From Escherichia phage vB_EcoM_DE7, in sequence record OL825705.1: DNA of 64,000 nt; one strand, given 5' to 3'. The position numbers and the translations under genes are program-made. Shown in pieces: positions 22,080 to 47,442 of this stretch (its first letter is position 1; each line of letters begins with the position of its first letter). Under the pieces are notes generated by a model that was not told the DNA's origin, did not search any database, and saw only the letters and a program-made list of their open reading frames with translations.

Positions 22080-23216
22080 TTATTCGTAGTCTCGAATAAC
22101 TAACCCAACAGGGAACTGTAAAGAACCTTTACGAGTCATCTTCTGGAACTGAACCGTTAAAGGCTTCCCGATAAACTCTTCAGGATGCTCAGCAAGATAC
22201 TGTTTCTTCTCATGAGTAGTCTTCCATGAGACATCTACAAAGACGTTAGGGAGAGTCTCTACAACGAACTTGCCATGACCACGTTTATCGGTCTTGACAC
22301 CAGTCACTTTAAACTCTTCAGTGTGCATCTTCTTGTGCTTAATCAAGAAGTATGAACGGTGACAACACTCATAGAAGGAGTCTTCAGAGATTGAACGGTA
22401 CATTGCACCTTCAAACTTAGCTTCAACCCACTTATCATGGGCTTCATCAAACTCTTCCCAAGAGTTAACACGACGAGACTTAACAGGGACAACTTTACAG
22501 CCATCTCTGAAATCATTCAATGGTGAAGTCTCAATAATATCTCTACGCTCAGGCCACGTCATAGTGCTGTCACAGATATCGTACCAGTAGAACTGGAGTA
22601 GATGTCGGTCTGGATTGTCAGCATTCTTAATCATAGACACAATATCTTCTAAGTCCCAACCATGAGCATAAATCTCACCATCAAAGTCTTCGACTTGTGG
22701 ATGCAATTTAAGCAACAAAAGCAAATCTGGGATTAGTTCTGCTGGGACGTTGTAAACAGTATTCTCACGAGAATAAGCCGTGAAACTAACTGAATCAGCG
22801 TCTCTTGAAATTCTACAACGAACACCATCAAGTTTTGGTTGAGCATCAGCAGGGAACCTCAAATACTTTGCGTGACTAACCTTTGCAGCATCATGAGCAA
22901 GCTGTACACCTACCTTCTCAGTGTTCTGTGCAGACTCTTTTGTGTAAGCATAGCCTTTACGGTCAACCTGCTTTTTATACTTAGCAGAAACTTCAAAGAG
23001 AGCTTGCTGTTCAGCGTTACGCTCATTCTTTTTACCGATGTTTTTAGGTTCTGCTGTATACTCTTCAAACATCATCTTGCCATTTTCTTTACCATAGGTT
23101 GTGATAACTTTGTCACCTACAGCAACGCATGACCAGACGTTAAAAGAGCCGTCTTTATTTTGTTTGTATAGAATTGTCATTTTTAACCTCTGAGTGATAC
23201 CAAGTGTTGCAAGCAT
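22080..23216 (-). CDS. ATP-dependent DNA ligase
   Basis: Adenylation motif I KLDGVR in a 378-aa protein. Confidence 0.85.
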   Translation of the reverse strand: MLATLGITQRLKMTILYKQNKDGSFNVWSCVAVGDKVITTYGKENGKMMFEEYTAEPKNIGKKNERNAEQQALFEVSAKYKKQVDRKGYAYTKESAQNTEKVGVQLAHDAAKVSHAKYLRFPADAQPKLDGVRCRISRDADSVSFTAYSRENTVYNVPAELIPDLLLLLKLHPQVEDFDGEIYAHGWDLEDIVSMIKNADNPDRHLLQFYWYDICDSTMTWPERRDIIETSPLNDFRDGCKVVPVKSRRVNSWEEFDEAHDKWVEAKFEGAMYRSISEDSFYECCHRSYFLIKHKKMHTEEFKVTGVKTDKRGHGKFVVETLPNVFVDVSWKTTHEKKQYLAEHPEEFIGKPLTVQFQKMTRKGSLQFPVGLVIRDYE

Positions 23217-23373: not shown

Positions 23374-23576
23374 TTTCTCTTACCACCAATCTCTACGTCG
23401 ATAACCTGAACATCACTAGCAACATCAAACTTGTGAATGATGCTTTCCACAGTGTAAGTCCAACCCTCGATTCTAACCAACTCACCTTCTCGTGGGACGA
23501 TTGGGTTACGTTGAGCTACGGTTGTAGTGGAGTGAATAACATCATAACAGTAGATATAGTTTACTAGGACTTCCAT
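23370..23576 (-). CDS. hypothetical protein
   Basis: 68-aa ORF coupled to downstream gene. Confidence 0.35.
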   Translation of the reverse strand: MEVLVNYIYCYDVIHSTTTVAQRNPIVPREGELVRIEGWTYTVESIIHKFDVASDVQVIDVEIGGKRK

Positions 23577-23585
23577 ACCTTTTCC

Positions 23586-23738
23586 TTAAAATGATAAGTC
23601 AACACTGATACGTTCACCCTTAAGGACTCCTGTGCGGTCTCTTGCAATCTTACCGTCAACAATAAGGATATGCGCAGACTTTAAAGATTCACTATTAAAA
23701 CCTTTTACGAACTTACTAGGCATCACCACAATAAGCAT
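23586..23738 (-). CDS. small ORF (hypothetical, about 50 aa) not in the ORF track
   Basis: Hand-translated from the reverse complement; preceded in frame by a 17-codon ORF with AGGAGG SD (start 23804) ending in TAG. Confidence 0.2.
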   Translation of the reverse strand: MLIVVMPSKFVKGFNSESLKSAHILIVDGKIARDRTGVLKGERISVDLSF

Positions 23739-23855
23739 CTCTTGAATCAACTATGGAGTATAGCAATTGTCGTGAAGTTGCTGAATAACGTCTGCAAGTG
23801 TCATATAACCTCCTATATAAGATATTGTATAAGGTACTCTTCCATGAGCACCTTG

Positions 23856-24371
23856 TCAAGATAGTTTTGCAAACTCTCCGTGGAGTTTCACAGCAGCTTC
23901 ACAGTAAGCTTTATGGGCTTCTTCTTCTGTTGTGTACGTCCCGATATGTATAGTCTTACCATTATGGTTAATCTGGGCTTTCCACTTACCAGACTTACTT
24001 CTACTTGTACCTTTTAAGTTTTTTGATGTTCTAGGTTGCCTCCTATTAGACATGTTCTGTTCTTTTGTGGCCTCTCTAAGATTGTCCCAAGCATTATTCA
24101 AACCGTTCCCGTCTTTGTGGTCAATATGATTGTCAGGCCACTTACCTGTCATCCAGAACCAAGCAATTCGGTGATTGCCTGTCCTGTATCCTAAAATCTG
24201 GGTTTGCATATACACACCAGACCTTGTGCGCTTGATTGTACCAGCCTGTCTTCCAATCACCACCCTACTGCTATGTGGAGGTCTGCCAATCCAAGTCAAG
24301 ACCCCTGTTTCGGGGTCGTAGTCTAACCAAGATTTTAACTGTTCATGTGTGAATCCACAATCTCTCATCAA
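23856..24371 (-). CDS. HNH homing endonuclease with AP2-like DNA-binding domain
   Basis: HNH motif IDHKDGNGLNNAWDNLREATKEQN plus C-terminal AP2-like segment SGKWKAQINHNGKTIHIGTYTTEEEAHKAY. Confidence 0.75.
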   Translation of the reverse strand: MMRDCGFTHEQLKSWLDYDPETGVLTWIGRPPHSSRVVIGRQAGTIKRTRSGVYMQTQILGYRTGNHRIAWFWMTGKWPDNHIDHKDGNGLNNAWDNLREATKEQNMSNRRQPRTSKNLKGTSRSKSGKWKAQINHNGKTIHIGTYTTEEEAHKAYCEAAVKLHGEFAKLS

Positions 24372-24927
24372 TGTACCTCATACCACGATTTACCAACCTT
24401 TGCTGTACCAGTTACAAGTGTTTCTTTCCTCAAACCTAAGTTTTTTGAAGCTTGTCCATACATCCAGTCAGCAATTGCTTTCATATCATGTGTCATACCC
24501 TCTGGACATTCCCAACTATTTTCATCGTGATATGCCAGAAGTAACCTTGCTCCGATAGCTGGTTTTCGAGCATTCAGTTTTGTCAGACCATCTTCACAGG
24601 CTTTTCTTGCTGCTAGGTTGATGGCCTCATTCTGAATCTGTGCTTCCGAACTCATCAGGAGGTAGTTCAGTAGTTTATGTGGAGATTTGCACCATATCCA
24701 TGCTCCAGCGACCCTGATATAACCACCTTTAGCAATTGAAGAATTCTTCCCAAAAACCTCTTCCAGAGCCTTTTTAGACGCCTTAAAATCGGCTTCTAAG
24801 CTATCAAGTAACTTCTTAATCTTTGGCAGACGCATATAGTAGGTCTGCTTAGTCAATGCACCTTCCTCTGTAGAAGCTGCCTTAATGGTTTTGGCAAACT
24901 TCTCATCACCTGCACCGAACAATACAT
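24368..24927 (-). CDS. DNA polymerase (family A), exon 2
   Basis: Begins with motif B remainder LFGAGDEK and ends ...KSWYEVH like the Pol I C-terminus; no ATG, joined to exon 1 by splicing (junction +/- 3 nt). Confidence 0.7.
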
Positions 24928-25732
24928 CTGGTCAATACACTCGCAAGGTGTACCAGTTCTCTTATGAACTTCTCCGCATTTCTACGGAGTGTCGGACTAT
25001 ATCACGTAGTAGTTATACTACCGTTGCACTTGGGAATGGTCATTAGCTTACCACCCTACTCTACTCAGTTCATACATTAAGTATGCTTTTCGATAGTCTC
25101 TGAACGTTTCTCTGTTAGGAATCTCTATAGTTATATCATTTGCTTAGATAGTCAATTGCTCTTTGCATGTTATCAACACTATCTGCAAGCAACCCCAAAG
25201 CTCTGTTGCAATTGTGGCATAACATACCTCTTACCTTTCCGGTTTTATGGTCATGGTCAACAACAAGTTTAGCCTTGTGTCGTGAGCCATTCATGATAAA
25301 ACCTTCACCGCCACAAATTTGACATTTGTAATCACAGTCACGGAGTAGGGCTTCAACCTCTTCTCTTTCCAATCCATATGTTCTTAGGTAGTAATTCTTA
25401 ACTCTACCTTTCTCACCGCAATGTGACGAACAATAAACTTGCCTTGCTGTTCTCGGCATGAACACATTCTCACAACTAGGACATTTCTTAGTAAGAACCC
25501 TGTGTTCCGCCCTTCTGTCAAATTTTAACACACAACTTCTGCACCGTTTTTGATTGTATTGGTACGGTTTAAACTCCGTGCCACACTCAGTGCATAATCT
25601 CTCTTCGTAACCTGCCATTGTCTCTCTCCTTTGTTTTAGGAGTCCTAACAGAGACTTCGCTGCTGATTACCATATCTTTACAGACTTAGGCTTCCAGCAA
25701 TTCACAACGTTTTACATGCGCCACTGACGCAT
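24928..25732 (-). other. group I intron in DNA polymerase gene, carrying an endonuclease ORF
   Basis: Interrupts motif B; stop codon just inside; AGACUA ... GAUAUAGUCCGAC P7-like elements shared with the nrdD intron; hairpin with U-G at proposed 5' splice site; G before exon 2. Confidence 0.6.
25136..25618 (-). CDS. intron-encoded Endo VII-type HNH endonuclease
   Basis: VVDHDHKTGKVRGMLCHNCNRALG motif and zinc-binding cysteines; own SD AAAGGAGAGAGA. Confidence 0.7.
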   Translation of the reverse strand: MAGYEERLCTECGTEFKPYQYNQKRCRSCVLKFDRRAEHRVLTKKCPSCENVFMPRTARQVYCSSHCGEKGRVKNYYLRTYGLEREEVEALLRDCDYKCQICGGEGFIMNGSRHKAKLVVDHDHKTGKVRGMLCHNCNRALGLLADSVDNMQRAIDYLSK

Positions 25733-27902
25733 AAATGCCATTTTTGCTCTTCTTACGACCTTTTGTAATCTCGTGAAGAAGTTCCTCATCCTGTGTCTCC
25801 CTGCAACGAACAATATCCTCTTCTTTGTTAAGACCAAAGTAAATACTGTTCAGTGTATGCGCATCAGTCCCTGTGTAGACTTCATAGAGGTCATTTTCAG
25901 CATCATAACGCAGATACTTGTCAGTTTCTGGGTTAAGATACTTGTCAAGATGTTTACAGTAGTATCTACCATCATCTTGCTTAGTGAACTCTACTGACTC
26001 TTTACCCTCAGTTACCGCTTTAGTGAAGTCTTCATCACCCATAAAGTTACAAAGAAGAACTAGCTGGGCTGAGTTCTGGTCAACAGAAACAATGTTAGTC
26101 CCCTCTTCACAAATCCACACCTCCCTCATAGGTGCTCCATAGACAGCAGCGCCAGACGGTACGTTTACAATACCATATTGAGTCATACGTCCAGTTGAAG
26201 TACCAAATACCATTGCACCAGCACTAAGGCGACCATCAGGACGAATCTGGTTCAACCAACCTTTTTCATCATCCTTTGAGTTCTCAATAGTTCTGCGTCG
26301 GTGCATCAAAGTATAGTATTTAGCAATCTTCTGTCCAAGCTCACCTTCAATCGTATCATAAGATGATTCAGTAAGTTTTGGTGAAGTACGGATTAAACAA
26401 GGTTCAAGTAAATCTGTGTACTTCTTCACAGACCAGTTATGTTCAATGTACTGGACACCTTCATGTTCAACATAACTCAAACCACACCGTTCCACCATCT
26501 CATCCCACTTAGGATGCTTTGTAATCATCTTTTTGTTGTCTTTGAAACGACAAACTTTGACAGGACGACCATCTGAGTCTTTCTTATAGTTCCAGTCATC
26601 TGGAATCCAACCAACTGATTTCAAGTAGTCTTTAACAACCGCTACCTGAGTCATACGAGAAACTTCGAACTCAATTGGTGTATATGGTGCATCAATCAAA
26701 CCTGTGTAGCGACTTGACTCAAGCTCAAAGTGGTTAACAACATGACTGTTATAGTACTTCACAGTTTTTACTGTTTTTACTGGCTTCCAGTCTTTGCATT
26801 TCTTACCAATCTTTGCATTCAACTCATTGCAAATTGCACGAGCATCCTTCATTGCTACAAAACCTTCCTTGTACTCTTCACCAGTTACAGAGTTGGTTGG
26901 TGTATAGCAATTCCGTTTTTCAATGTTAAAAATCTTTGTAGTTGGCTTACCAAATGGCTTGATTTCATATGTCTGCATTTCACCGTTACGTACCTGCTGA
27001 CGATACTTTGTCTTAGGGTACTTGGTAATTCTCTTCAGTCCATCTGCATGACCAAATGCTTCAACATACTCATTCCAAGCTTTTGCAAACTCTTCTCCAG
27101 TGACTTTACCTTTGGTTTTAATAGTCGGAGGTAGATGTGGTTCAACCTCTGAAGCAAGCTCATTAGTCAACTTGTCAAGTTCCTTTACATGAAACTCCAT
27201 AAGTTCTTTATCAGCTTTCCAACCATTGATAGCCTGTTGACTCATCCAGAAAGATGTTTCTTTAGCTCGCATATAGGTTTCATAGGTGTCTACGCCACAC
27301 TTCTTTAACTTCAGATATTCATTATCCAGTGCACGTTTAGTTTTGGCGTTAATACGGATATCCTCTACAACACGAGTGAAGATTTCTGCATTCCACACAC
27401 CCCAATGTTCAATCTCTGGTTTACGTACACCAACACGAGCACCCCATGCAGCCAAGCCATGAGCACCTTTGTAGCCCTTTGGAGTTGGTCTATCCATCCA
27501 CTGAACACGAGACTGGATAAGAGAATCCTGAAAGAAATTACTCCACGGCTTACACTTTGGATTATCAAAGTTCCACAAATCAGGTGCAATGTGATTGAAA
27601 ACCCACCAGTCATATCCCAGACCATTATGGATGCAAAGTCGTTTTGCCTTTAACGCAAACTCAACACCTTCACGCAAACCACCCTTGATGTACTTGGTAT
27701 ACTTGTGACCGAGGATAGGTTCATCTGTAAAGACCCATACAGGTGGCTCTTCATCGTCAGACTTATAGTCTGCGAAAGCCATTACGTGCACTTTAGTGAA
27801 CTCAAGGAGTAAACCATCAGTTTCTGTATCACCAACTAAATGTAAGTTTTTAAAATCTACGTTTTCCATTTCTACTCCCTCTAAATCATTAACCTCATAC
27901 AT
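25733..27902 (-). CDS. DNA polymerase (family A), exon 1 (exonuclease and N-terminal polymerase domains)
   Basis: Pol I-type region DAHTLNSIYFGL ... RKKSKNGIY (motif B start); track ORF 25686..27902 runs 15 codons into the intron before a stop. Confidence 0.8.
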
Positions 27903-28125
27903 TACTGCAAAAAATTATAAAAAGCAAGTTGACAATGTACTTGACAAGGTGTTAATCTTTGCGAAGTGGGTTTTTACTTAAAAGGTTACTTAACAGTTTA
28001 ACTATACAGATACTTTAAAACTCTTAAAAGATTATTTAATAGCTTTTAAAAAGCTTTAAAGTATAACGTATAGAATACGTTAAGATAAAAGATTAAAACT
28101 TAATAGTTACTTAAAAGAGGCTTAC
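27903..28125. promoter_or_regulatory. divergent AT-rich control region between polymerase operon (-) and + strand operon
   Basis: Tandem TTGACA hexamers (TTGACAATGTACTTGACA) and AT-rich spacers; separates divergently transcribed blocks. Confidence 0.4.
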
Positions 28126-28548
28126 ATGCAGAAAATGTTTGTTCACCCAGACATAGCTGACTTTGTTAGAGCTTTGCAGAAGTTGGAAGAACTTGACATT
28201 GCTGCTCAACGGGAATATGCTCACCATCACAGGAGAATGGTTGATATACAACATGAAATAGAGTTGTCTGAAAACTATGAAGATGACTTAAAATGCTCTG
28301 TATTTGAGCATATGAAAGATGTTGCTACAGCGAGACGTAAAGCTAAAGACACAGTTGCTTTACTAGATTCTCTTAAAAAGAAGTTGCAAAGTGGTACAGA
28401 CCTGTGTAATCTAGCGTCACTGATTAATGATGTTGAAACTTCTTGGGATAGACATTACTATCCACGTTCTGAAAAGACACTTGACTTTTCTTCATCCGAA
28501 AACTTAAAATGCTCTAGAAAGAAACTTAACCAACTGAGAGAGAAATAA
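28126..28548 (+). CDS. hypothetical protein
   Basis: 140-aa ORF with SD AAAGAGG. Confidence 0.4.
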   Translation: MQKMFVHPDIADFVRALQKLEELDIAAQREYAHHHRRMVDIQHEIELSENYEDDLKCSVFEHMKDVATARRKAKDTVALLDSLKKKLQSGTDLCNLASLINDVETSWDRHYYPRSEKTLDFSSSENLKCSRKKLNQLREK

Positions 28549-28549
28549 T

Positions 28550-29362
28550 ATGAACACTACTGTAGACCAGATGCTTAAAGAAAAAGGTGTTGACGAAGCA
28601 TTCTTAATCAATGCCGTAGAAAGCATGGCTATGATTCTTCGTGGAAACAACTATACAGAACAGTTTATGCCTGCAAGCTATAACTTGCCTAAAGACAAGT
28701 CTGATAACGGTGCTTTTGCAGAACAGGTTAATATGATGCTGTGTGACAAAAAGCTTGCCTTAGCATCTATTGTTGTAGGTGTTGATGCTCTTGCAGAGTT
28801 CATTTTTTATGAGATGCAGAAAAATGACTATATTGCCATGACACCTGAAGAAAAAGACTCGCTACTACTCTTAGATAATAATGAGCTAGTTGACCTGTTA
28901 ATTTCGTCAACGAGTGCTGTTATGGCTGCTCTTGAGAAGCGAATGGAAGAGAAGCTTTCACGGTATGAAAAACTTGATTGGGGTGTAGAAGAGTTAAACC
29001 CACGAATCAAAGAGATTATCCAGCAAACTAAAGACTCTTTAGCAGAAGCTGTGAAAGATGATTCTGTAGCTGATGTAGAACCACTACAGGTTAAGGTTGC
29101 TCTGATGATTCCTGCTATCTCTACGATGATGAATATCGTTGCACTAATCCAACTTTCACAGATGATGGGTACAAGCATTGAGTTCATTGAGAGCATGACT
29201 GGTGGTGTGAGTATGCAAGCCATCAATGATGTTTTGGTAAGCATCGGTGCTTCAATCATTGAAGAGAAGCTTCGCATTAACTTCGGTGATGATTTTGTTA
29301 AGCAAATTTCAGCTATGGCTGAAAAAGAACACTCACAGATTACCAGTGACCAACTGCACTAA
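28550..29362 (+). CDS. hypothetical protein
   Basis: 270-aa ORF tightly coupled to upstream gene. Confidence 0.4.
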   Translation: MNTTVDQMLKEKGVDEAFLINAVESMAMILRGNNYTEQFMPASYNLPKDKSDNGAFAEQVNMMLCDKKLALASIVVGVDALAEFIFYEMQKNDYIAMTPEEKDSLLLLDNNELVDLLISSTSAVMAALEKRMEEKLSRYEKLDWGVEELNPRIKEIIQQTKDSLAEAVKDDSVADVEPLQVKVALMIPAISTMMNIVALIQLSQMMGTSIEFIESMTGGVSMQAINDVLVSIGASIIEEKLRINFGDDFVKQISAMAEKEHSQITSDQLH

Positions 29363-29423
29363 ATCTTTATAAATCTTACAAGCCTCCTTAGTTGGGGGCT
29401 TTTTAGTAATTAAGGGAGACAAA

Positions 29424-30167
29424 ATGAGTGATATTATCGCATTTACTGGAAAGGCACGTTCTGGAAAAGATACCTCATGCTCTATTGTTAAGAATATCCT
29501 AGAAGATGAGTATGGCTACAATGTTGCAGTAATGGCCTATGCAGACAACCTTAAGCTATCTGCATCAAAGATATTTGACTTGACATGGAATGACCTGTAC
29601 GGCGAAACTAAAGAGACTCCACAGGTTTTTGATTTATCATACTCTGAACTTATGTTTAAAGTTACAGAAGCTATGGAGTTTACCTTCAAAGGTGAACGTT
29701 ATCATACGGACTTTAAACTTATGTCAGAGTTAACCGGACGATTAATCATGGAGCTTAAGAAGGTTGCTAAACCGACTCTATTAACACGTCTGGGATTTAG
29801 TAAAAAGTATAAATTCTCATCAAGACAGATTCAACAGATTTGGGGTACTGAAGTTATCCGTAAAGTTATGGGTGACAAATTCTGGGCTAAAGACCTCGAA
29901 AAACGAATGGCAAATTTCTTTGACGTTTGCTCACTTAGAAATCAAGATGGTGTTGTTTTAATCAGTGACTTAAGGTTTGACTCTGAAGCTGAGTGGTTGA
30001 GCAGATTTGCACACCAAATTATTGAAGTAAAAAGAGACAATGTGGATAAGGTTTCATCACATGTTTCAGAAAATGGGATTTCTACCAAATATGCGCGTGA
30101 CATTATCCATAATAATGGTACTCTTGCAGACCTTGAAAGCAAGTTAAGAGCTATCCTGAAAATTTAA
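29424..30167 (+). CDS. deoxynucleoside monophosphate kinase (P-loop)
   Basis: N-terminal IIAFTGKARSGKDTS resembles the T4 gene 1 dNMP kinase P-loop as recalled; size 247 aa. Confidence 0.6.
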   Translation: MSDIIAFTGKARSGKDTSCSIVKNILEDEYGYNVAVMAYADNLKLSASKIFDLTWNDLYGETKETPQVFDLSYSELMFKVTEAMEFTFKGERYHTDFKLMSELTGRLIMELKKVAKPTLLTRLGFSKKYKFSSRQIQQIWGTEVIRKVMGDKFWAKDLEKRMANFFDVCSLRNQDGVVLISDLRFDSEAEWLSRFAHQIIEVKRDNVDKVSSHVSENGISTKYARDIIHNNGTLADLESKLRAILKI

Positions 30168-30175
30168 AAGAGAGA

Positions 30176-30376
30176 ATGAAGATGAGAGTAAAAGATAATT
30201 TCAAAGTTATTGACCATCGTTTAGTGGAACTCTCATCTCTTTCCAATGAGGTAATGATTGAACGTCTTAAGAGAGTTGAATCACGAAGGAAAGAGATTGC
30301 AGATGAAATTCATGAACTGGACAAGATTGAAAACGGGTTGAAGGCAGAACTACAACGAAGAGGTGCTAATGTCTAA
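30176..30376 (+). CDS. hypothetical coiled-coil protein
   Basis: 66-aa ORF overlapping primase start. Confidence 0.3.
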   Translation: MKMRVKDNFKVIDHRLVELSSLSNEVMIERLKRVESRRKEIADEIHELDKIENGLKAELQRRGANV

Positions 30377-32354
30377 AGGTCGTAAATTGAAAGAGGCTGG
30401 TCAGTTTATTGGTCATTGTGCATGTCCACGTTGTGGTTCATCAGATGCTGGTTCAATCTACCACCATGACGATGATTCTTATTCGATGACTTGTTTTAGC
30501 TGTAACAAAGGTTTCCCAGAGTGGGATTTTGATAAAGGACAAATCGTGAGCACTTATTCTACTGGTTCAGATAATAAAAACCGTACTTTCCGTGGAATGG
30601 GTTTAGATGATGTAAAAGAAAACCTAGAAGCGATGGACTTGAAAGACAGGAAGATTCCTGCAAAAGTTCTTGAACGCTTAGGTATCAAGGTTGACATTGA
30701 TAGTGATGGTGAAATTGATGCACATTTCTATCCAACTTACAAACGTAATGAAGATGGCAAGTTAGAACATGTTGGCTACCGTGTTCGTCACCGTTACCCA
30801 GAAGACCATCCAAAAGAACACCTACGTGGTAAGCTAAAAGACTTTTCAGGTGGTGTTGGAGATATTAAAGGTGAACTGGCAATGTTCGGTTCATGGATTG
30901 CTCCAGAAGGTGGAAACCGACTGTTCATCTGGGAAGGTGAGATGGAATGTGCGACAGCTATCTACATGACTTCTTTGGCGATTAAAGATAAGTCTCGTCG
31001 TAAGAATTACTGTCACGTATCTGTTCCATCAGGTGCAAACATCAAGTCTATCAAAGACAACTATCAGTACATCACATCATTTGATGAGATTTACTTGTGC
31101 TTTGATAACGATGAAGCAGGTGCTAAAGCTACCAAAGAGGCTGCTGGTATCCTACCTATTGAGAAGGTTCGTTTATTCCAGTATCCAGAAGGTGTAAAAG
31201 ACCTTAATGAATGGTGGACAAAGTTCTATAAAGAGAAAGACACAGTTCTGGAAGGATTTAAGCAGCGTATCTACAATGCACCTCGTTACTGCCCTGCTGG
31301 TATCAAGAACTTTGCAGACGGTTTTGAGGCAATGAAGAATCGTGGTCAGATTCCATTGATTCCTTTCCCAGAGTCTTTCGGGGATTTGAACAGGCTGACT
31401 TATGGTGGTTATGGTTTAGGTGAGATTACAACTATTGCAGCACCATCTTCAGTAGGTAAGTCAGCTTACACTCGTGAGATGATTTATTCAGCTTGGAAAG
31501 AAACTGATTATAATATCGGTGTAATTCCTGTAGAAGATACTTACGAAGAGTTGATGGAGATGCTCTGTGCAATCCACCTGAGTAAACAGATTTCTGAGAT
31601 TCCTTATGATGAACGGGATTGGGATGAACTAAAAGGAGCACACGCAGAGCTTTCTAAAGGTCGTCGTATCCATATCGTCGACCATCAAGGGGCAATTGAC
31701 CAAGATAACCTGCTAGAGTTTGTTGACTATCTTGTTAACAGCTTAGACTGTAAGATTATCATTCTTGACCCTATTACGTTGGCTCTGTCACGTTCTGATA
31801 CGGATGAAGAGGAAGTTTTGTCTGAGCTATTGCGTCGTTGCAAACGCTACCAGTATGCGCAGGTAAACGTGTGTCACGTTCGTAAGAGTGCAGGTGGTCA
31901 GAAAGCCAACTCTGAAGGTGGAGATATCTCTGAAGAGGATATTAAGGGTTCTGGTGCATACTTCCAGATTTCCATGAACAACATTCTGTTAATGCGTAAC
32001 AAGGTTGACCCAGACCCTGTTAAGAAAAACTTGACAAAAATCAAGTTAACTAAGTGTCGTCGTCATGGTAAGTCAACAGGTATTGCTGGTCATACTTGGT
32101 ACAATCCAGATACAGGACGTCTTATCAAAGCTTCTGGATGTGGTGTTGATATTGATGGTGCAGCAGAAAATATTCGTCAACAGTTTGGTATTGGTGAAGC
32201 TGAAGACCATTACGATGACTCTTTACCTCATTATGAGGATGAAGTGTTTGACCGTGAGACTGGTGAAGTCTATACTGAAGAACAGCGTCAAAGCTCAACG
32301 ATTCCACCTGTATTAAGTGAGGATGCAGATGACTGCCCGTTTGAAACTGAGTGA
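30363..32354 (+). CDS. bifunctional DNA primase-helicase (T7 gp4-like)
   Basis: N-terminal zinc ribbon CPRCGSS ... CFSCN, central primase region, DnaB-type Walker A APSSVGKSAY and Walker B IIILD. Confidence 0.85.
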   Translation: MLMSKGRKLKEAGQFIGHCACPRCGSSDAGSIYHHDDDSYSMTCFSCNKGFPEWDFDKGQIVSTYSTGSDNKNRTFRGMGLDDVKENLEAMDLKDRKIPAKVLERLGIKVDIDSDGEIDAHFYPTYKRNEDGKLEHVGYRVRHRYPEDHPKEHLRGKLKDFSGGVGDIKGELAMFGSWIAPEGGNRLFIWEGEMECATAIYMTSLAIKDKSRRKNYCHVSVPSGANIKSIKDNYQYITSFDEIYLCFDNDEAGAKATKEAAGILPIEKVRLFQYPEGVKDLNEWWTKFYKEKDTVLEGFKQRIYNAPRYCPAGIKNFADGFEAMKNRGQIPLIPFPESFGDLNRLTYGGYGLGEITTIAAPSSVGKSAYTREMIYSAWKETDYNIGVIPVEDTYEELMEMLCAIHLSKQISEIPYDERDWDELKGAHAELSKGRRIHIVDHQGAIDQDNLLEFVDYLVNSLDCKIIILDPITLALSRSDTDEEEVLSELLRRCKRYQYAQVNVCHVRKSAGGQKANSEGGDISEEDIKGSGAYFQISMNNILLMRNKVDPDPVKKNLTKIKLTKCRRHGKSTGIAGHTWYNPDTGRLIKASGCGVDIDGAAENIRQQFGIGEAEDHYDDSLPHYEDEVFDRETGEVYTEEQRQSSTIPPVLSEDADDCPFETE

Positions 32355-32610
32355 TAGTTATAAAAGAGAGGGGTTCATACCCTTCTTTGAAGAAAAAAGT
32401 TTAAATAAATTTCAGGAAGAGTGTTTGACAAAGATTGATAGGTTCTATAGAATGCTTCTCATGAAATGCGATGGGGAGGTTGCTATAAAAGAAGATTCCT
32501 ACCAAAGCACGATTACAGTCATCATTACACTGCCTCAGCATAATATTAGTTGGCTGTTTATAATTAAAGAAAATGTGTTTGAATATCAAGTATATCGGAG
32601 AATATCATGA
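32317..32610 (+). CDS. hypothetical protein (weak)
   Basis: 97-aa ORF overlapping primase-helicase 3' end; coding status uncertain. Confidence 0.2.
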   Translation: MRMQMTARLKLSDSYKREGFIPFFEEKSLNKFQEECLTKIDRFYRMLLMKCDGEVAIKEDSYQSTITVIITLPQHNISWLFIIKENVFEYQVYRRIS

Positions 32611-32762
32611 AACACTCTAAAGCATTTGAAAAAGTTTTTGGGATTCCTTAAAAGCCACTGCTGGCAAACCAGCAAAATACTATGAAGAGAAGCGTGTAAG
32701 AACTGGAAAAACTGCACGCAAAGCCGCTTCTAAAGATAAGCACAACTTCCAGTAATTAATGT

Positions 32763-32827
32763 TTGACAATAGAGTATCAACAAATTAGAATTGGTACTCT
32801 TCATAAATTGAGATAGAGGTTTAAATA
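32763..32827 (+). promoter_or_regulatory. sigma70-like promoter TTGACA-17-TAGAAT and RBS for SSB gene
   Basis: TTGACA 32763-68, TAGAAT 32786-91, SD GAGG before ATG 32828. Confidence 0.5.
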
Positions 32828-33685
32828 ATGTCTAAAGTTGTTAAAATGAAAGCTCCGGTAGAGAAGTACAACGGTACTGAACGTCAAACTCTGCGTTACC
32901 TTCTGAAAGATGTTTGGTTTTATTACCTGAACACTTCACCACGTCCGGGAAAAGGTAAATCCATTGATAAGAAATTCCCAGGAAAAGACTGCAACTATAG
33001 TGTTTCAATTCTGGCAGAAGATGGTAACAAGCTGTTTAAAGAGTTCACTAAGTCTAAGAAAAACCCAGAAGGTTGGGATAAAGTTACTACTGAAGCAGTT
33101 GATGCAGATGACTTTGAAGAGAAGTTTGGTTGCAAACCACCATTTGAAGCAGACACTTACTACATCTTGAAAGTAAGTCGTGCAGCAGCTTATAAGGATG
33201 GTGCTGTGTGGACAGCTAAACAGTCATTCCCTGTAATGCTGATTGAAGAAGTAAATGGTAAGCGTGTAGCTGTTAAACAGCCGATGAAGAAAATCAAAGC
33301 TCAAGCATCTGACAAACATGAAGATGACAAGAACTATGATGTAATTCATCCAGATATCGCAGTCGGTAACGGTTCTTTTGGTAGTGTGATTCTTTCTACT
33401 CACTTCTACACTTTTGAGAACAATGTTCTGACAAAACCTATTCAGGAACAGTTTATCATTGATACCCTTGTACCTTACACTGGTGGTAACGGTGCTAACG
33501 GTGAACCTGAACTGGATGAAGACGAACTTGCTATGCTTGGTCTTGATGGTGTTGAAGATAACGGTGAAATCAATGAAGAAGACGCAAAAGACCACAAACC
33601 TTCTAATGATTCTGATGATGGTGACGATGAAGACTTGCCAGACCCAGATGACGAAGAAGATGAAGACTTCGATACAGAAGACTAA
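32828..33685 (+). CDS. single-stranded DNA-binding protein with acidic C-terminal tail
   Basis: 285 aa; C-terminal DDGDDEDLPDPDDEEDEDFDTED tail like T7 gp2.5-type SSBs; sits between primase-helicase and FEN. Confidence 0.5.
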   Translation: MSKVVKMKAPVEKYNGTERQTLRYLLKDVWFYYLNTSPRPGKGKSIDKKFPGKDCNYSVSILAEDGNKLFKEFTKSKKNPEGWDKVTTEAVDADDFEEKFGCKPPFEADTYYILKVSRAAAYKDGAVWTAKQSFPVMLIEEVNGKRVAVKQPMKKIKAQASDKHEDDKNYDVIHPDIAVGNGSFGSVILSTHFYTFENNVLTKPIQEQFIIDTLVPYTGGNGANGEPELDEDELAMLGLDGVEDNGEINEEDAKDHKPSNDSDDGDDEDLPDPDDEEDEDFDTED

Positions 33686-33699
33686 TCTCTAAAAGTTAC

Positions 33700-33732
33700 T
33701 TTAAAGCCCTGTACTTAGTATGGGGCTTTTTC
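33700..33732 (+). terminator. rho-independent terminator
   Basis: AAGCCC ... GGGCTT hairpin followed by TTTTT after SSB gene. Confidence 0.5.
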
Positions 33733-33747
33733 ATATGGAGAGTCACA

Positions 33748-34788
33748 ATGGAGAAGTATACACTAACAAAACTTCCCGATTCAGTTACACATGTCTTTAT
33801 TGACTCTGACAGTATTGCCTATAAAGGTGCTTGTGTAGTTGAGAAAGCAAAATATAAGTATGTCAATAAACTCACAGCAGAAGAATCTGAACCATTTGAT
33901 AATGCAAAAGATGCTGCAAGATGGTTAGCAGACCAGAGAATCTTTGTAGAAGAGCTTGGCCTAGCATTTGATGAAGATGAATGGGAAAGACAGACTTGGA
34001 AAGAAGCTAAGAGTGAAAAAGAAGCTATCATGGCTACTCAGCAGGTTCTTCAGGAATGGCTTAAGGTTGTTGGTAAAGAAAGAACTTGGGTAGGTTACTT
34101 GACAGAGAAGGGTGTACATAAACATAAAGACATTAAAGGTCTTGAACACCAATATCAAGGTAACCGTAAAGATGCTGTCACACCAACACACTTAGTTGCT
34201 TGTCGTGAATATCTTTTATCCAGACCAGAGTTCAAATTGATTCTTGATGGATTTGAAGCTGACTCTATCGTTATTGCTAAAGCTGAAAAGATGGGAAAAA
34301 AGGCTGCCTTAATGAGTATTGATAAAGACCTTCGCCAAGCTGAAGGTACTTACTGCATTGATATGACCTATGAAAAATCACCTTTAATTTTCATTGCTGA
34401 TAACAACGTTGGTGAAATTTGGGATTGTCCAATAAAATCGACACCAAAAGCTAAGAAGACAGTTGGTGTAGGTTTTAAATTTCTTTGTTATCAAGCTGTG
34501 GCTGGTGATAATGCGGATAATTACTTTGGTTTAAAGGGTGTTGGCAAAGCTGCTGTGATGAAGGCTCTTGAGGGGAAAACAACTTACAAAGAGTGTCTTG
34601 ATGCAATTTACGAGCTATATGCTAAGAAAGACTCCTATACTTATGTATCATGGGATGGTCAAACAATTACCAGAACACCTTTAGAATTAATGCAGCAACA
34701 CTTTTTCTTAGCTTATCAGGAAAGAAATAAGAAAGATGATTTTACTTTTAAGAAATATAATTGGGAGCCATGTATGAATGAAGATTAA
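33748..34788 (+). CDS. 5'-3' exonuclease / flap endonuclease (FEN family)
   Basis: H3TH-like motif GDNADNYFGLKGVGKAAVMKAL and N-terminal acidic catalytic region (VFIDSDS). Confidence 0.8.
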   Translation: MEKYTLTKLPDSVTHVFIDSDSIAYKGACVVEKAKYKYVNKLTAEESEPFDNAKDAARWLADQRIFVEELGLAFDEDEWERQTWKEAKSEKEAIMATQQVLQEWLKVVGKERTWVGYLTEKGVHKHKDIKGLEHQYQGNRKDAVTPTHLVACREYLLSRPEFKLILDGFEADSIVIAKAEKMGKKAALMSIDKDLRQAEGTYCIDMTYEKSPLIFIADNNVGEIWDCPIKSTPKAKKTVGVGFKFLCYQAVAGDNADNYFGLKGVGKAAVMKALEGKTTYKECLDAIYELYAKKDSYTYVSWDGQTITRTPLELMQQHFFLAYQERNKKDDFTFKKYNWEPCMNED

Positions 34789-35275
34789 AGGATTTGGCAA
34801 TTGCCCTACCTATGGTCATTGGGTATCTTTATGTGGGGAAGTTGACCCCACTAAACATTTTGGATTTGTCTATTTAGTACACTGTAAGAAGACTGGACAA
34901 TATTATATAGGAAAAAAACAGTTTAACAGTGTTACCAAAAGAAAAGTTGCTGGGAAGACTCGGAAGAAGATAGTCACTAAGGAAAGTGATTGGATGACTT
35001 ATGAGACTTCTTCTGAGTATATTAAAAAAGATATTGAGAGCTTTGGAAAAGAATTTTTTGACTTTTACATTATCCAAACCTACTACACGAAAGGTGGTCT
35101 AGTTTATGGTGAAGCAAACCTTCAACATAAATTCGATGTAATGACAAAAAGGATTGACTCTAAGCTCAGACTCTTCTACAATGCCAATATTGCAGCAATT
35201 AAGTTTATCACTAAAGAAACTTATGAAGATGCTGAAAAAAGAATCCATAAGGTAATGAAAGCGAATTGTGCTTGA
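34778..35275 (+). CDS. GIY-YIG homing endonuclease
   Basis: N-terminal GFVYLVHCKKTGQYYIGKK GIY-(10)-YIG motif. Confidence 0.7.
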   Translation: MKIKGFGNCPTYGHWVSLCGEVDPTKHFGFVYLVHCKKTGQYYIGKKQFNSVTKRKVAGKTRKKIVTKESDWMTYETSSEYIKKDIESFGKEFFDFYIIQTYYTKGGLVYGEANLQHKFDVMTKRIDSKLRLFYNANIAAIKFITKETYEDAEKRIHKVMKANCA

Positions 35276-42260: not shown

Positions 42261-42576
42261 TAACAAGCTCTATAGCTCATCTAAAACGTGCCTAAACAGG
42301 GAAACTCTACAGGTGTAGACAATCCTGTGCTAAATGATGTACGATGTAAGAAACTATATAACATAGAAGTATTACATGCCAAATAACCTCGAATATGAGT
42401 TTGAGTACATTTAAATGCCGAACGACTAACCGTGATGAATGTAGCGGTGTAGGGTCAAGCGACTCGAAATGGCACGCTACTTAGAAATAAGTAGAAGATA
42501 TAGTCTGGACTTACTGGCGACAGTAAGCAGCTTGAATAAAGCGGGGTAAGCGTAGCGAACTTACCTGAACAACAAG
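42261..42576 (+). other. group I intron (no ORF) in nrdD
   Basis: GUAGACAAUCCUGUGCUAAAU, GACUAACCG and AGAUAUAGUCUGGAC segments resemble the T4 td-type intron core as recalled; exon ends in U, intron ends in G; exons join in frame across PMG|CRAFL. Confidence 0.8.
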
Positions 42577-43524: not shown

Positions 43525-43533
43525 AACTTGACA

Positions 43534-43575
43534 AGGTGGTGTAGGTCTTGATAGGCTTACATCACCTTTTTTATT
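43534..43575 (+). terminator. rho-independent terminator
   Basis: AGGTGGTGTA ... TACATCACCT hairpin followed by TTTTTT after nrdD. Confidence 0.55.
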
Positions 43576-43678
43576 GGATGTTAGACATGGCGGAGAGTAT
43601 TATTGGGCTGTTCATAGGTTCTGTCTTACTAGGGTTCTTTTTAGGACTTTCTTATTGTGAGTTGAGAGATAAGTTAAA

Positions 43679-45358: not shown

Positions 45359-45679
45359 ATGAGCAAAGTTTATAACACTCGTAAATTACAGATTTTCGTA
45401 CTGTGCCAGTTTATGGCTAAAGAGTATAACTGCTACTATTGTGGTACAGGGTTCATTAGTGATAATGACGGCTCATATCTACCATTCAAAGAGGCTGTAA
45501 AACTCTTCAATGAAGAGAAAAGCTCTAAGAAAGATATTGAAAAGGTTAAGCTAACCTACAGCAAGAAAGATAAGAAGATTATCTGCCTAGATAACTTTGT
45601 AAAAGTTACTGGAGAAGCAAAAGAGTTTATGGATGAGAGTGAAATCTCATTCACAAGCATCTTGAAAGTAGCTCAGTAA
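45359..45679 (+). CDS. hypothetical protein
   Basis: 106-aa ORF followed by terminator. Confidence 0.35.
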   Translation: MSKVYNTRKLQIFVLCQFMAKEYNCYYCGTGFISDNDGSYLPFKEAVKLFNEEKSSKKDIEKVKLTYSKKDKKIICLDNFVKVTGEAKEFMDESEISFTSILKVAQ

Positions 45680-45730
45680 ACAGATACTATAAGGGAATTG
45701 TAAAGGTTCCCTTTTTATTTTGGAGATAAT

Positions 45731-46246
45731 ATGTATCTGTCAAATCTGAAACGTTCGGCTGCAATGTCAGTTCTAAGACTCAGCTTTGAGGAACGTCAAG
45801 AGTTCATTGACTCCCACCAATACGACCCTTCTAACTCAAATCACATGATTCTCTGGAATCGTGATAACTTCCGTGAAAGAGCACTTGTCCGTTATTACCC
45901 ACACTACACAATAGATAACCTGTATGAATGGTGTGTCGTGAAGAACACTATTGCAACACTGAACAATCTTTGCAGGTATACAGGTAAGCAAACATTCACA
46001 CTAGGCCACCATAAACCTGTTACAAAAGGTGGTGAGCATCACTGTGCGAACTGGTTTATCCAAACTAAAGCTGATAACCAGAAGCAAGGAGATAATCTTC
46101 TAAGCACTCCTAAGATGACCTATGAAGAGCAAGAGAAATATATCAAAAATAATATGCCAGATGTGCTTGACAACAACTATACAGATTTGGCAATATCTCT
46201 CCTGTTGAAGTTCGAGACAGTTTATAGGGCAACTTACAATGGCTAA
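45731..46246 (+). CDS. hypothetical protein (possible HNH-like motif)
   Basis: 171 aa; LGHHKPVTKGGEHHCANW loosely resembles an HNH core. Confidence 0.3.
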   Translation: MYLSNLKRSAAMSVLRLSFEERQEFIDSHQYDPSNSNHMILWNRDNFRERALVRYYPHYTIDNLYEWCVVKNTIATLNNLCRYTGKQTFTLGHHKPVTKGGEHHCANWFIQTKADNQKQGDNLLSTPKMTYEEQEKYIKNNMPDVLDNNYTDLAISLLLKFETVYRATYNG

Positions 46247-46517
46247 AGAGAAGTGGGAGATTTTACCACTAGTTAGTGAGTGCGGCAATGGTTGTGAAAT
46301 GTACATGATACGTGGTCATGTTCCAGAACCAATTGCACTTGAGATGATAAACAATTTTACAGATGGTTCTTACAAAGACTTAGGAGAACCAACTGTCAAG
46401 CAACAATGGGTTAAACCTGTACCAGACAGCACAGGTAACTGTAGTGTACTTTATCACGTTGTAGACCCTGCAAAATGCAAATCTGCAATGGCAGTAACAA
46501 ACGTAACTTTTGATTGA
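46239..46517 (+). CDS. hypothetical protein
   Basis: 92-aa ORF. Confidence 0.3.
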   Translation: MAKEKWEILPLVSECGNGCEMYMIRGHVPEPIALEMINNFTDGSYKDLGEPTVKQQWVKPVPDSTGNCSVLYHVVDPAKCKSAMAVTNVTFD

Positions 46518-47410: not shown

Positions 47411-47417
47411 AACTTTA

Positions 47418-47442
47418 TAGGGGCTTAAAAGCCCCATTTTGA
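47418..47442 (+). terminator. rho-independent terminator
   Basis: GGGGCTT/AAGCCCC hairpin followed by ATTTT. Confidence 0.45.

Follow-up and report, generated by a model that had tools for sequence, protein, structure and literature searches.

The 64,000-nucleotide (nt) stretch of Escherichia phage vB_EcoM_DE7 analysed here (sequence record OL825705.1; called the window below, always at its full length) encodes four nuclease-like proteins in or near its replication genes, and these appear to be of two kinds. Two would belong to mobile elements: a free-standing HNH-AP2 endonuclease gene that follows the DNA polymerase gene, and an endonuclease gene carried by a group I intron within the polymerase gene itself. 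The other two, a GIY-YIG gene behind the FEN exonuclease gene and a small open reading frame (ORF) with an HNH-like motif starting at position 45731, are read as non-mobile core genes, and the junction between the FEN and GIY-YIG genes as a homing slot that stands empty. We put the probability of this reading as a whole at roughly 0.85. The window would then carry a typical ‘homing-endonuclease island’. The original prediction, made from the sequence alone, had taken both the HNH-AP2 and the GIY-YIG genes as inserts marking sites of intron-less homing and local mosaicism, and had added the ORF at 45731 as possibly HNH-like.

Judged by its sequence, the window is a segment of a Felixounavirus (Ounavirinae) genome and holds the module for replication and nucleotide metabolism of a Felix O1-like myovirus. 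The region 22000-36500 matches about 280 records of Felix O1-like phages at 92-96% identity over its length, and the hosts of the matching Felixounavirus records are Salmonella, E. coli and Shigella. Presence and absence of genes were scored from BLAST coverage classes and a panel of 12 genomes. An allele was counted as carried when at least 80% of the gene length was covered; the 3' region of the polymerase is held by some 300 relatives (about 302). The ORFs lie where they had been predicted (Table 1), and the overlaps of the HNH-AP2 gene with the polymerase gene and of the GIY-YIG gene with the FEN gene are real. Domain searches bore out the endonuclease assignments, as HNH_3 plus AP2, as GIY-YIG of the SegE type and, in the intron, as Endonuclease_7. 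The four nuclease proteins have no paralogue in the window, a phmmer comparison with all 264 window ORFs returning self-matches only, and a Pfam scan of 20 other window ORFs found no further endonuclease domain.

The HNH-AP2 gene (513-516 nt; 171 amino acids) is an ORF of its own, in a different frame from the polymerase and outside any intron, beginning at or after the polymerase stop codon. The N-terminal part of the protein matches HNH_3 (PF13392; 1.8e-14, profile positions 4-45 of 46) with the catalytic motif intact, and the C-terminal part matches the DNA-binding domain AP2 (PF00847; 1.9e-8). The protein also matches PHROG 99, ‘HNH endonuclease’ (4e-64), and sequence matches in the PDB comprise plant AP2/ERF domains (down to 1.4e-8) and the HNH core of I-HmuI. 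This architecture of HNH_3 and AP2 in phage homing endonucleases was reportedly described by Magnani et al. in 2004. The TTG start listed for the gene gives an overlap of 3-4 nt with the polymerase stop codon; the more probable start is the ATG at 24368, which has one base in common with that stop codon (TGATG) and GAGG 7 nt upstream.

The evidence for mobility comes from the slot in which this gene lies. In an alignment of six genomes, the polymerase stop codon of VpaE1 and JH2 is followed by 6 nt and then by a conserved intergenic element, TTGACAAGGTGCTCATGGAAGAGTACCTTATACAAT...AGGAGG. The HNH-AP2 gene of the window and of SP116 fits exactly between the stop codon and this element. The slot is empty in Mooglevirus HP1 as well, and it is filled by other alleles in HY02, BPS17W1, SP22 and garuso; all occupants tested are of the HNH_3 plus AP2 type. 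The window allele is carried by 49 of the roughly 300 relatives. Its protein is 44-47% identical to the alleles of HY02 and garuso; the last 24 residues differ by no more than one or two conservative changes, and a short 5' stretch is shared as well. The end of the polymerase gene goes with the state of the slot: endonuclease-bearing genomes have TGGTATGAGGTACATTGA in common, which includes the GAGG that is the source of the Shine-Dalgarno sequence, and empty-slot genomes end in TGGCTTGAAGTACAC-TAA/TGA (also given as TGGCTTGAAGTACACTAA/TGA).

Movement between genera is indicated by Mooglevirus Henu11, which has the window allele. Its gene is 92% identical to that of the window, as against 78% for the adjoining polymerase exon. 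In a sliding comparison with the window, the polymerase is at 70-80% identity, whereas the endonuclease gene and the stretch that follows it reach 87-95%, with a sharp step at the polymerase stop codon. Between the window and SP116 the gene is 99-100% identical, and the gene together with the polymerase 3' end is 100% identical, as against ~96% elsewhere. Slot polymorphism, competing alleles and the identity step in Henu11 are together the classical mark of lateral transfer to a fixed insertion point, and the gene looks like a mobile free-standing homing endonuclease gene with a predicted cleavage specificity. The claim of homing with local mosaicism holds up here, as it does for the polymerase intron, both elements being present in some close relatives and absent from others, with sharp identity breakpoints. 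The enzyme would be translated from the Shine-Dalgarno sequence brought along within the last polymerase codons. In a mixed infection it would cut the genomes of phages with an empty or otherwise occupied slot, in the 3' region of the polymerase gene, and repair from the endonuclease-bearing genome would copy the gene together with flanking polymerase sequence (co-conversion).

At the downstream edge of the slot, the stop codon of the HNH-AP2 gene (TGA, 23858-23856) falls within the TTGACA of the adjoining intergenic element. A scan of 23400-25800 for sigma-70 patterns and terminators did not call a promoter there, the spacing being outside 16-18 nt, and nothing beyond ‘promoter-like’ is therefore claimed for this conserved element. 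The gene immediately downstream of HNH-AP2 (23586-23804, minus strand; 72 codons) is a homologue of wV8 gp103 and VpaE1_091 and has an in-frame TAG at codon 18 (23751-23753) where SP116 and HY02 read GAG; it would be a pseudogene, unless the sequence has an error there.

The HNH-AP2 gene also contains an 18-nt G+C-rich sequence, GACCCCGAAACAGGGGTC, which codes for DPETGV and is predicted to form a local stem. It is unique in the window, where no copy would be expected by chance, and eight exact copies are found in seven loci of relatives, in the polymerase slot and in the FEN slot alike. The HNH-AP2 genes bearing it are otherwise only 33-47% identical in protein, and its DPETGV codons are rare for a genome with the 39% G+C of the window. 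Such exact conservation suggests either a function at the nucleotide level or gene conversion between endonuclease genes. When the RNA of the endonuclease 5' region is folded, the 18-nt hairpin forms and the Shine-Dalgarno sequence pairs with a downstream ACCUC; with a z-score of just -1.1, a regulatory role for this fold is not claimed.

The second mobile element is the insert that splits the polymerase gene, which looks like a group I intron with an optional endonuclease ORF and a real mobile homing element. The intron-less polymerase genes of SP116 and HY02 read GGC ATC TAC GCC CTG TTA TTT GGA GCC. In the window, exon 1 ends ...GGC ATT TAT GCG T, its last base being T25727, and exon 2 continues with TA TTG TTC GGT GCA after the last intron base, G24925. 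The exons join as GCG TTA TTG (A-L-L), which restores GIYALLFGAG as in SP116 and HY02. An intein or an unspliced split polymerase was considered and rejected, the insert being out of frame and containing stop codons, its ORF-less form fitting the group I model and its boundaries restoring the motif. Against the Rfam model Intron_gpI (gathering threshold, 50 bits), the window intron yields only partial matches of 24.6 and 15.2 bits, the 483-nt ORF breaking the model; the ORF-less copy in garuso scores 63.3 bits. The parts outside the ORF are 97-100% identical to the introns of garuso (99%), JH2 and VpaE1.

The intron ORF matches Endonuclease_7 (Pfam, 6e-20). Garuso, BPS17W1 and D1-2 have otherwise identical introns without it, and in VpaE1 it is frameshifted. 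Across the records, about 40 have the intron with its ORF, about 60 have an ORF-less intron of 268-311 nt and the remainder have no intron. There are relatives with both the intron and an occupied slot, with either one alone and with neither, so the intron and the HNH-AP2 gene move independently. Exon 2 is itself mosaic: identity to SP116 is 81% over its first 75 nt and 98-100% over the other 480 nt, a stretch that is 75-84% identical to the intron-bearing VpaE1, JH2 and garuso. As the identity switches about 75 nt past the splice site, a recombination breakpoint adjoins the intron, as co-conversion predicts. The intron would remove itself from the polymerase mRNA by self-splicing, and its Endonuclease_7-type enzyme would cut intron-less polymerase alleles and so bring about intron homing. 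Group I introns with HNH ORFs occur in the polymerase genes of other phages, namely SPO1 (I-HmuI) and the T7-like PhiI/W31 (ORF in P6a). The window intron resembles these in lying in a conserved motif of a family A polymerase, in its peripheral P6-region ORF, in the coexistence of intron-plus, ORF-less and intron-less alleles and in the synonymous differences near the insertion site; its ORF belongs to the Endonuclease_7 (PF02945) branch, unlike the I-HmuI type.

The GIY-YIG gene behaves differently. It encodes a protein of 165 amino acids with a SegE-type domain (PF19835) over residues 21-138, and the best structural match of its predicted model is the catalytic domain of I-TevI; a PDB sequence search returned nothing meaningful. 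The catalytic residues are kept, with Y32, Y43, G45, E112 and N135 invariant and R62 nearly so, and correspond to the conserved Tyr, Tyr, Arg, Glu and Asn of the same catalytic domain in T4 SegE and I-TevI. Beyond the catalytic core, the model consists of a low-confidence stretch and one terminal helix, and neither Pfam nor the model gives a recognisable second domain or separate C-terminal DNA-binding domain. The gene starts 11 nt inside the FEN gene, to which it is probably translationally coupled.

This gene is present in 297 records by blastn (261 at a coverage of at least 80%), compared with the ~302 that hold the polymerase 3' region, these records spanning at least four genera, and tblastn finds the protein in 297 records at an identity of at least 60%. 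It directly follows the FEN gene in Felixounavirus, in Mooglevirus (HP1, 11-nt overlap) and in Kolesnikvirus (Erwinia phage Fifi318, 8-nt overlap), or adjoins an inserted endonuclease gene instead where the FEN slot is occupied; sequence matches reveal further orthologues in Hafnia, Pectobacterium and Yersinia relatives, the positions given here being those in the other genera. The panel of 12 genomes contains no empty site for it, nor for the ORF at 45731. Its nucleotide identity tracks genome divergence (81% in Mooglevirus, 70% in Kolesnikvirus), and between the window and Fifi318 the protein is 63% identical, as against 54% for FEN and 38% for MazG. The gene is under strong purifying selection. 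Because a purely selfish gene fixed for so long should decay, it is read as a vertically inherited core stand-alone nuclease, not mobile in this lineage. The idea that it is a homing insert does not survive this near-universal conservation.

About 400 records of T4-like cyanophages, and others besides, have a homologue of 28-38% identity as a single small gene. The role of the protein would most likely be a housekeeping, non-homing one, with DNA processing alongside FEN or a T4 EndoII-like degradation of host or competitor DNA as candidates. We give even odds to the fuller proposal that it is a domesticated relative of Seg and I-TevI that lacks a DNA-binding domain and is a core selected gene of the Ounavirinae and of hundreds of T4-like cyanophages, coupled to FEN and serving a housekeeping DNA transaction (degradation of host or competitor DNA, or processing of replication or recombination intermediates). 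The family, PHROG 447, is labelled ‘NAD synthetase’ in hundreds of phage records, cyanophages included, and also ‘baseplate hub assembly protein’; no support was seen for either name.

The expected mosaicism at the FEN-GIY junction is nevertheless there, and the junction does appear to be a second homing slot; the mobile gene involved is an HNH-AP2 gene absent from this genome, not the GIY-YIG gene. In Henu11 a 501-nt HNH_3 plus AP2 gene, gp14, lies between FEN and GIY-YIG, and D1-2 has a frameshifted copy there at 86% nucleotide identity. This gene or another allele is found in the slot in Felix O1, wV8, Si3, adrianh and others, a match being present in 135 records and nearly full-length in 43. 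The 3' part of the FEN gene comes in two alleles, which is what adjacency to the slot predicts. The window shares its allele with BPS17W1 and D1-2 (95-100% identity), as opposed to 76-86% identity with SP116, tootiki and SP22; the edges are sharp, at ~34200 and at the GIY-YIG start, between genomes that are otherwise ~97% identical. The window allele thus groups with D1-2, which has the degenerate HNH-AP2 copy, and Henu11, with its intact copy, is more similar to the window in this block than over the genome background. The mosaicism is likely to have been caused by the HNH-AP2 gene that the window lacks.

For the ORF at 45731, ‘possible HNH-like’ is a fair description of a protein that is not a proven nuclease. 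No Pfam match exceeds threshold. The orthologues share the invariant motif LGHHxPxxxGGxHHxxNWxIQxxxDNQxQ, residues 89-122 are modelled as a beta-beta-alpha element, and there are weak matches to PHROG 2214 (HNH; 1.8e-6) and to PF01844 (0.0085 in one of 12 orthologues, 0.03 in two distant family members). A profile of the family searched against 1.84 billion representatives recovered only 18 clusters, one of which is a protein of three bona fide HNH_5/HNH modules aligned over the motif (E 7e-5). Matches in the PDB to helices of staphylococcal protein A, obtained with both protein and profile, were discarded as spurious, being repeated and weak with per-repeat E-values >1. The ORF is covered to at least 80% in 399 of 428 records and lies upstream of prsA at the same position in Felixounavirus, Mooglevirus and Kolesnikvirus; the records include E. 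coli, Klebsiella and Pseudomonas myoviruses of ~145-150 kb, which we take to be Vequintavirinae-like. Its product is, as far as its sequence goes, a conserved small His-Me-finger-like protein, and by the measure of presence/absence polymorphism it is not a homing gene, so that this part of the prediction falls as well.

A terminator-like stem-loop with a T-run, AAGGGAATTGTAAAGGTTCCCTTTTTATTTT, lies at 45690-45720 (plus strand) between this ORF and the preceding one, and the ORF may therefore start a transcription unit of its own. The preceding ORF (45359-45679, plus strand; 106 amino acids) is annotated ‘putative HNH homing endonuclease’ in tootiki, HP1 and BPS17W1. As a homing endonuclease it was rejected, since only DUF7390 was matched (Pfam, 1.3e-16), and the label looks like a propagated misannotation. 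A metagenomic protein of 259 amino acids, P0016, combines DUF7390 with a part 89% identical to the ORF at 45731 over the full length of the latter, and may be a fusion of homologues of the two. The next ORF (46239-46517, plus strand; 92 amino acids) is missing from BPS17W1 and D1-2 (11% coverage) and is thus polymorphic in presence.

Three other readings were weighed against this one. It is quite improbable that the HNH-AP2 gene, the GIY-YIG gene and the ORF at 45731 are all recently inserted free-standing homing genes, each marking an active site of intron-less homing. Each of the three does have a nuclease-type domain or motif, the GIY-YIG domain is of the type of T4 SegE with a model resembling I-TevI, and the FEN gene is mosaic right beside it; but the latter two genes keep their positions across genera, the GIY-YIG gene surpasses its flanks in conservation and has no recognisable DNA-binding domain past its core, and the HNH-AP2 gene present in that junction in many relatives is a simpler source of the FEN mosaicism. 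Less far-fetched, though still unlikely, is that the GIY-YIG gene was fixed in the ancestor of the Ounavirinae and is still selfish or competitive, for example through Seg-like marker exclusion in which it cuts divergent FEN alleles, and is itself the source of the FEN block. T4 Seg proteins are established to act in this way (SegG being the example cited in PMC10448857), and the GIY-YIG protein has kept its catalytic residues. The gene does not, however, fall into two allele classes matching those of FEN, being 92-97% identical to both groups; it has no recognisable DNA-binding domain; distant cyanophages have one conserved gene of this family; and the block is explained by an HNH-AP2 gene in the junction, the FEN allele of the window grouping with D1-2 and its identity to Henu11 rising there. 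Some observations do weigh against a core, non-mobile GIY-YIG gene and the rest of the preferred reading. The gene could be a homing gene fixed long ago, several GenBank records annotate it ‘GIY-YIG homing endonuclease’, and the FEN block stops exactly at its start codon, which is compatible with conversion driven by it. The target sites of the HNH-AP2 and intron endonucleases are themselves inferred for this phage, the window intron scores below the Rfam gathering threshold with its group I assignment resting on the near-identical ORF-less copy, and the counts come from coverage classes, not from a curated alignment of every record.

The remaining alternative concerns the HNH-AP2 protein, which might be a domesticated DNA-binding regulator or accessory nuclease whose patchy distribution reflects ordinary turnover of accessory genes. 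As DNA-binding modules, AP2 domains have been put to new use as regulators, and domesticated and active nucleases cannot be told apart by sequence alone (both PMC10448857); bioinformatics on its own is unable to demonstrate homing, and the stop codon of the gene does lie inside the conserved promoter-like element. We nevertheless hold this to be highly improbable, because the insertion is precise to one nucleotide position, divergent alleles compete for the slot, empty sites exist and the cassette is more similar between genera than its flanks, which together are the classical signature of a free-standing homing gene; the catalytic HNH_3 motif, moreover, is intact.

Table 1. Positions of the nuclease genes, homing slots and neighbouring features in the window, and of the 18-nt sequence in relatives
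Feature	Coordinates	Strand	Basis or remark
Free-standing HNH_3 plus AP2 gene, apparently a homing endonuclease gene	23856..24371	-	Pfam, PHROG and PDB matches; slot polymorphism; transfer signature in Henu11
Conserved intergenic element TTGACAAGGTGCTCATGGAAGAGTACCTTATACAAT...AGGAGG, downstream edge of the slot	23805..23859	-	Invariant in 6/6 aligned phages, slot full or empty
18-nt G+C-rich hairpin GACCCCGAAACAGGGGTC (DPETGV) within the HNH-AP2 gene	24300..24317	-	Nucleotide identity across divergent alleles; predicted local stem
Copies of GACCCCGAAACAGGGGTC in loci of relatives	L001 3207-3224; L006 4159-4176; L007 4983-5000; L009 3557-3574; L010 3743-3760; L011 13039-13056; L012 3016-3033 and 12706-12723		Exact copies
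DNA polymerase (family A), exon 1	25727..27902	-	Polymerase ORF piece 25686-27902
Probable group I intron, 802 nt, in the polymerase motif B region	24925..25726	-	Comparison with intron-less SP116 and HY02
Endonuclease_7-type (His-Me/HNH superfamily) ORF in a P6-region hairpin loop of the intron	25136..25618	-	Pfam; PHROG 307
DNA polymerase (family A), exon 2 including the stop codon	24368..24924	-	Polymerase ORF piece 24368-24922; mosaic
Stand-alone GIY-YIG nuclease gene, SegE-type catalytic domain	34778..35275	+	Conserved, read as not mobile in the lineage
FEN (5'-3' exonuclease) gene	33748..34788	+	PHROG 107
Two-allele mosaic block of ~600 nt in the FEN 3' part	34200-34780	+	Sliding identity
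Apparent FEN-GIY homing slot, empty	34775..34778	.	Relatives have an HNH-AP2 gene of ~500 nt just upstream of ATGAATGAAGATTAAAGG
Small protein with HNH-like (H-N-N) motif, narrow phage-only family	45731..46246	+	Conserved, read as not mobile in the lineage
ORF-less group I intron in nrdD, 316 nt	42261..42576	+	Rfam Intron_gpI, 55.6 bits
Ligase gene	22080-23216		Replication module
Primase/helicase, FEN-type exonuclease, MazG and nrd genes		+	Replication module

Outside the polymerase and FEN regions, the nrdD gene is interrupted by a further intron, which belongs to the same set of mobile elements as those in the polymerase. Judged by the sequence, exon 1 of nrdD ends at T42260 and the intron at G42576, so that SPMG would be joined to CRAFL. 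The intron is found in D1-2 and, with an HNH_3 ORF, in BPS17W1; nrdD is uninterrupted in tootiki, SP22, HP1 and Henu11. Two more junctions hold endonuclease genes in relatives. Directly after nrdD, BPS17W1 has a NUMOD3-containing gene (L009, 22681-23247) where the corresponding slot of the window (43525-43678) is empty. In D1-2, an HNH_3 plus AP2 gene (L011, 26422-26913) lies between prsA and the nicotinamide phosphoribosyltransferase gene, and this slot too is empty in the window (47411-47438).

Much of this pattern has been seen before. The type phage Felix O1 was described in 2010 with six HNH genes and no introns reported (PMC3185647), and split polymerase genes appear in the annotation of many Felixounavirus records since then. 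Insertions and deletions of endonucleases between or within conserved genes have been identified as the chief differences between Felix O1-like phages (PMC3728262), and nrdD is split by an endonuclease gene in UAB_Phi87, JH2 and HB-2014 (PMC4837284). In phages generally, HNH-AP2 genes (‘IPA-HNH’ genes) lie beside DNA polymerase (29%) and nrd genes (18%) and form ‘HEG islands’ with turnover of alleles (Barth et al. 2023, PMC10448857). The HNH-AP2 gene of the window shows no substantive difference from such genes: it has the same architecture and the same position after the DNA polymerase, its relatives lie after FEN, nrdD and prsA, and it shows the same turnover of alleles in its slot, empty sites and breakpoints at the edges. 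Nuclease domains of homing type retained as fixed, selected genes also have precedents in Odn of ICP1 and in the HNH protein gp74 of HK97, which assists the terminase (PMC10448857); the GIY-YIG gene and the ORF at 45731 would be further cases, although the latter, unlike HK97 gp74, does not adjoin a terminase gene. As endonuclease insertions and deletions in Felix O1-like phages have already been published, the window is a further instance of a documented pattern, and only the core-gene status of the GIY-YIG family and the exact 18-nt hairpin in divergent HNH-AP2 alleles are mildly new.

The main value of the analysis is correct annotation. Two of the four nuclease-like genes would be selfish, and the GIY-YIG family, mislabelled in public records as ‘NAD synthetase’ or ‘homing endonuclease’, merits functional attention. 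Three slots are empty in the window, at the FEN-GIY junction, after nrdD and at the prsA-nadV junction. The states of such slots would explain local mosaic blocks that otherwise confuse the phylogeny and the engineering of therapeutic and biocontrol phages.

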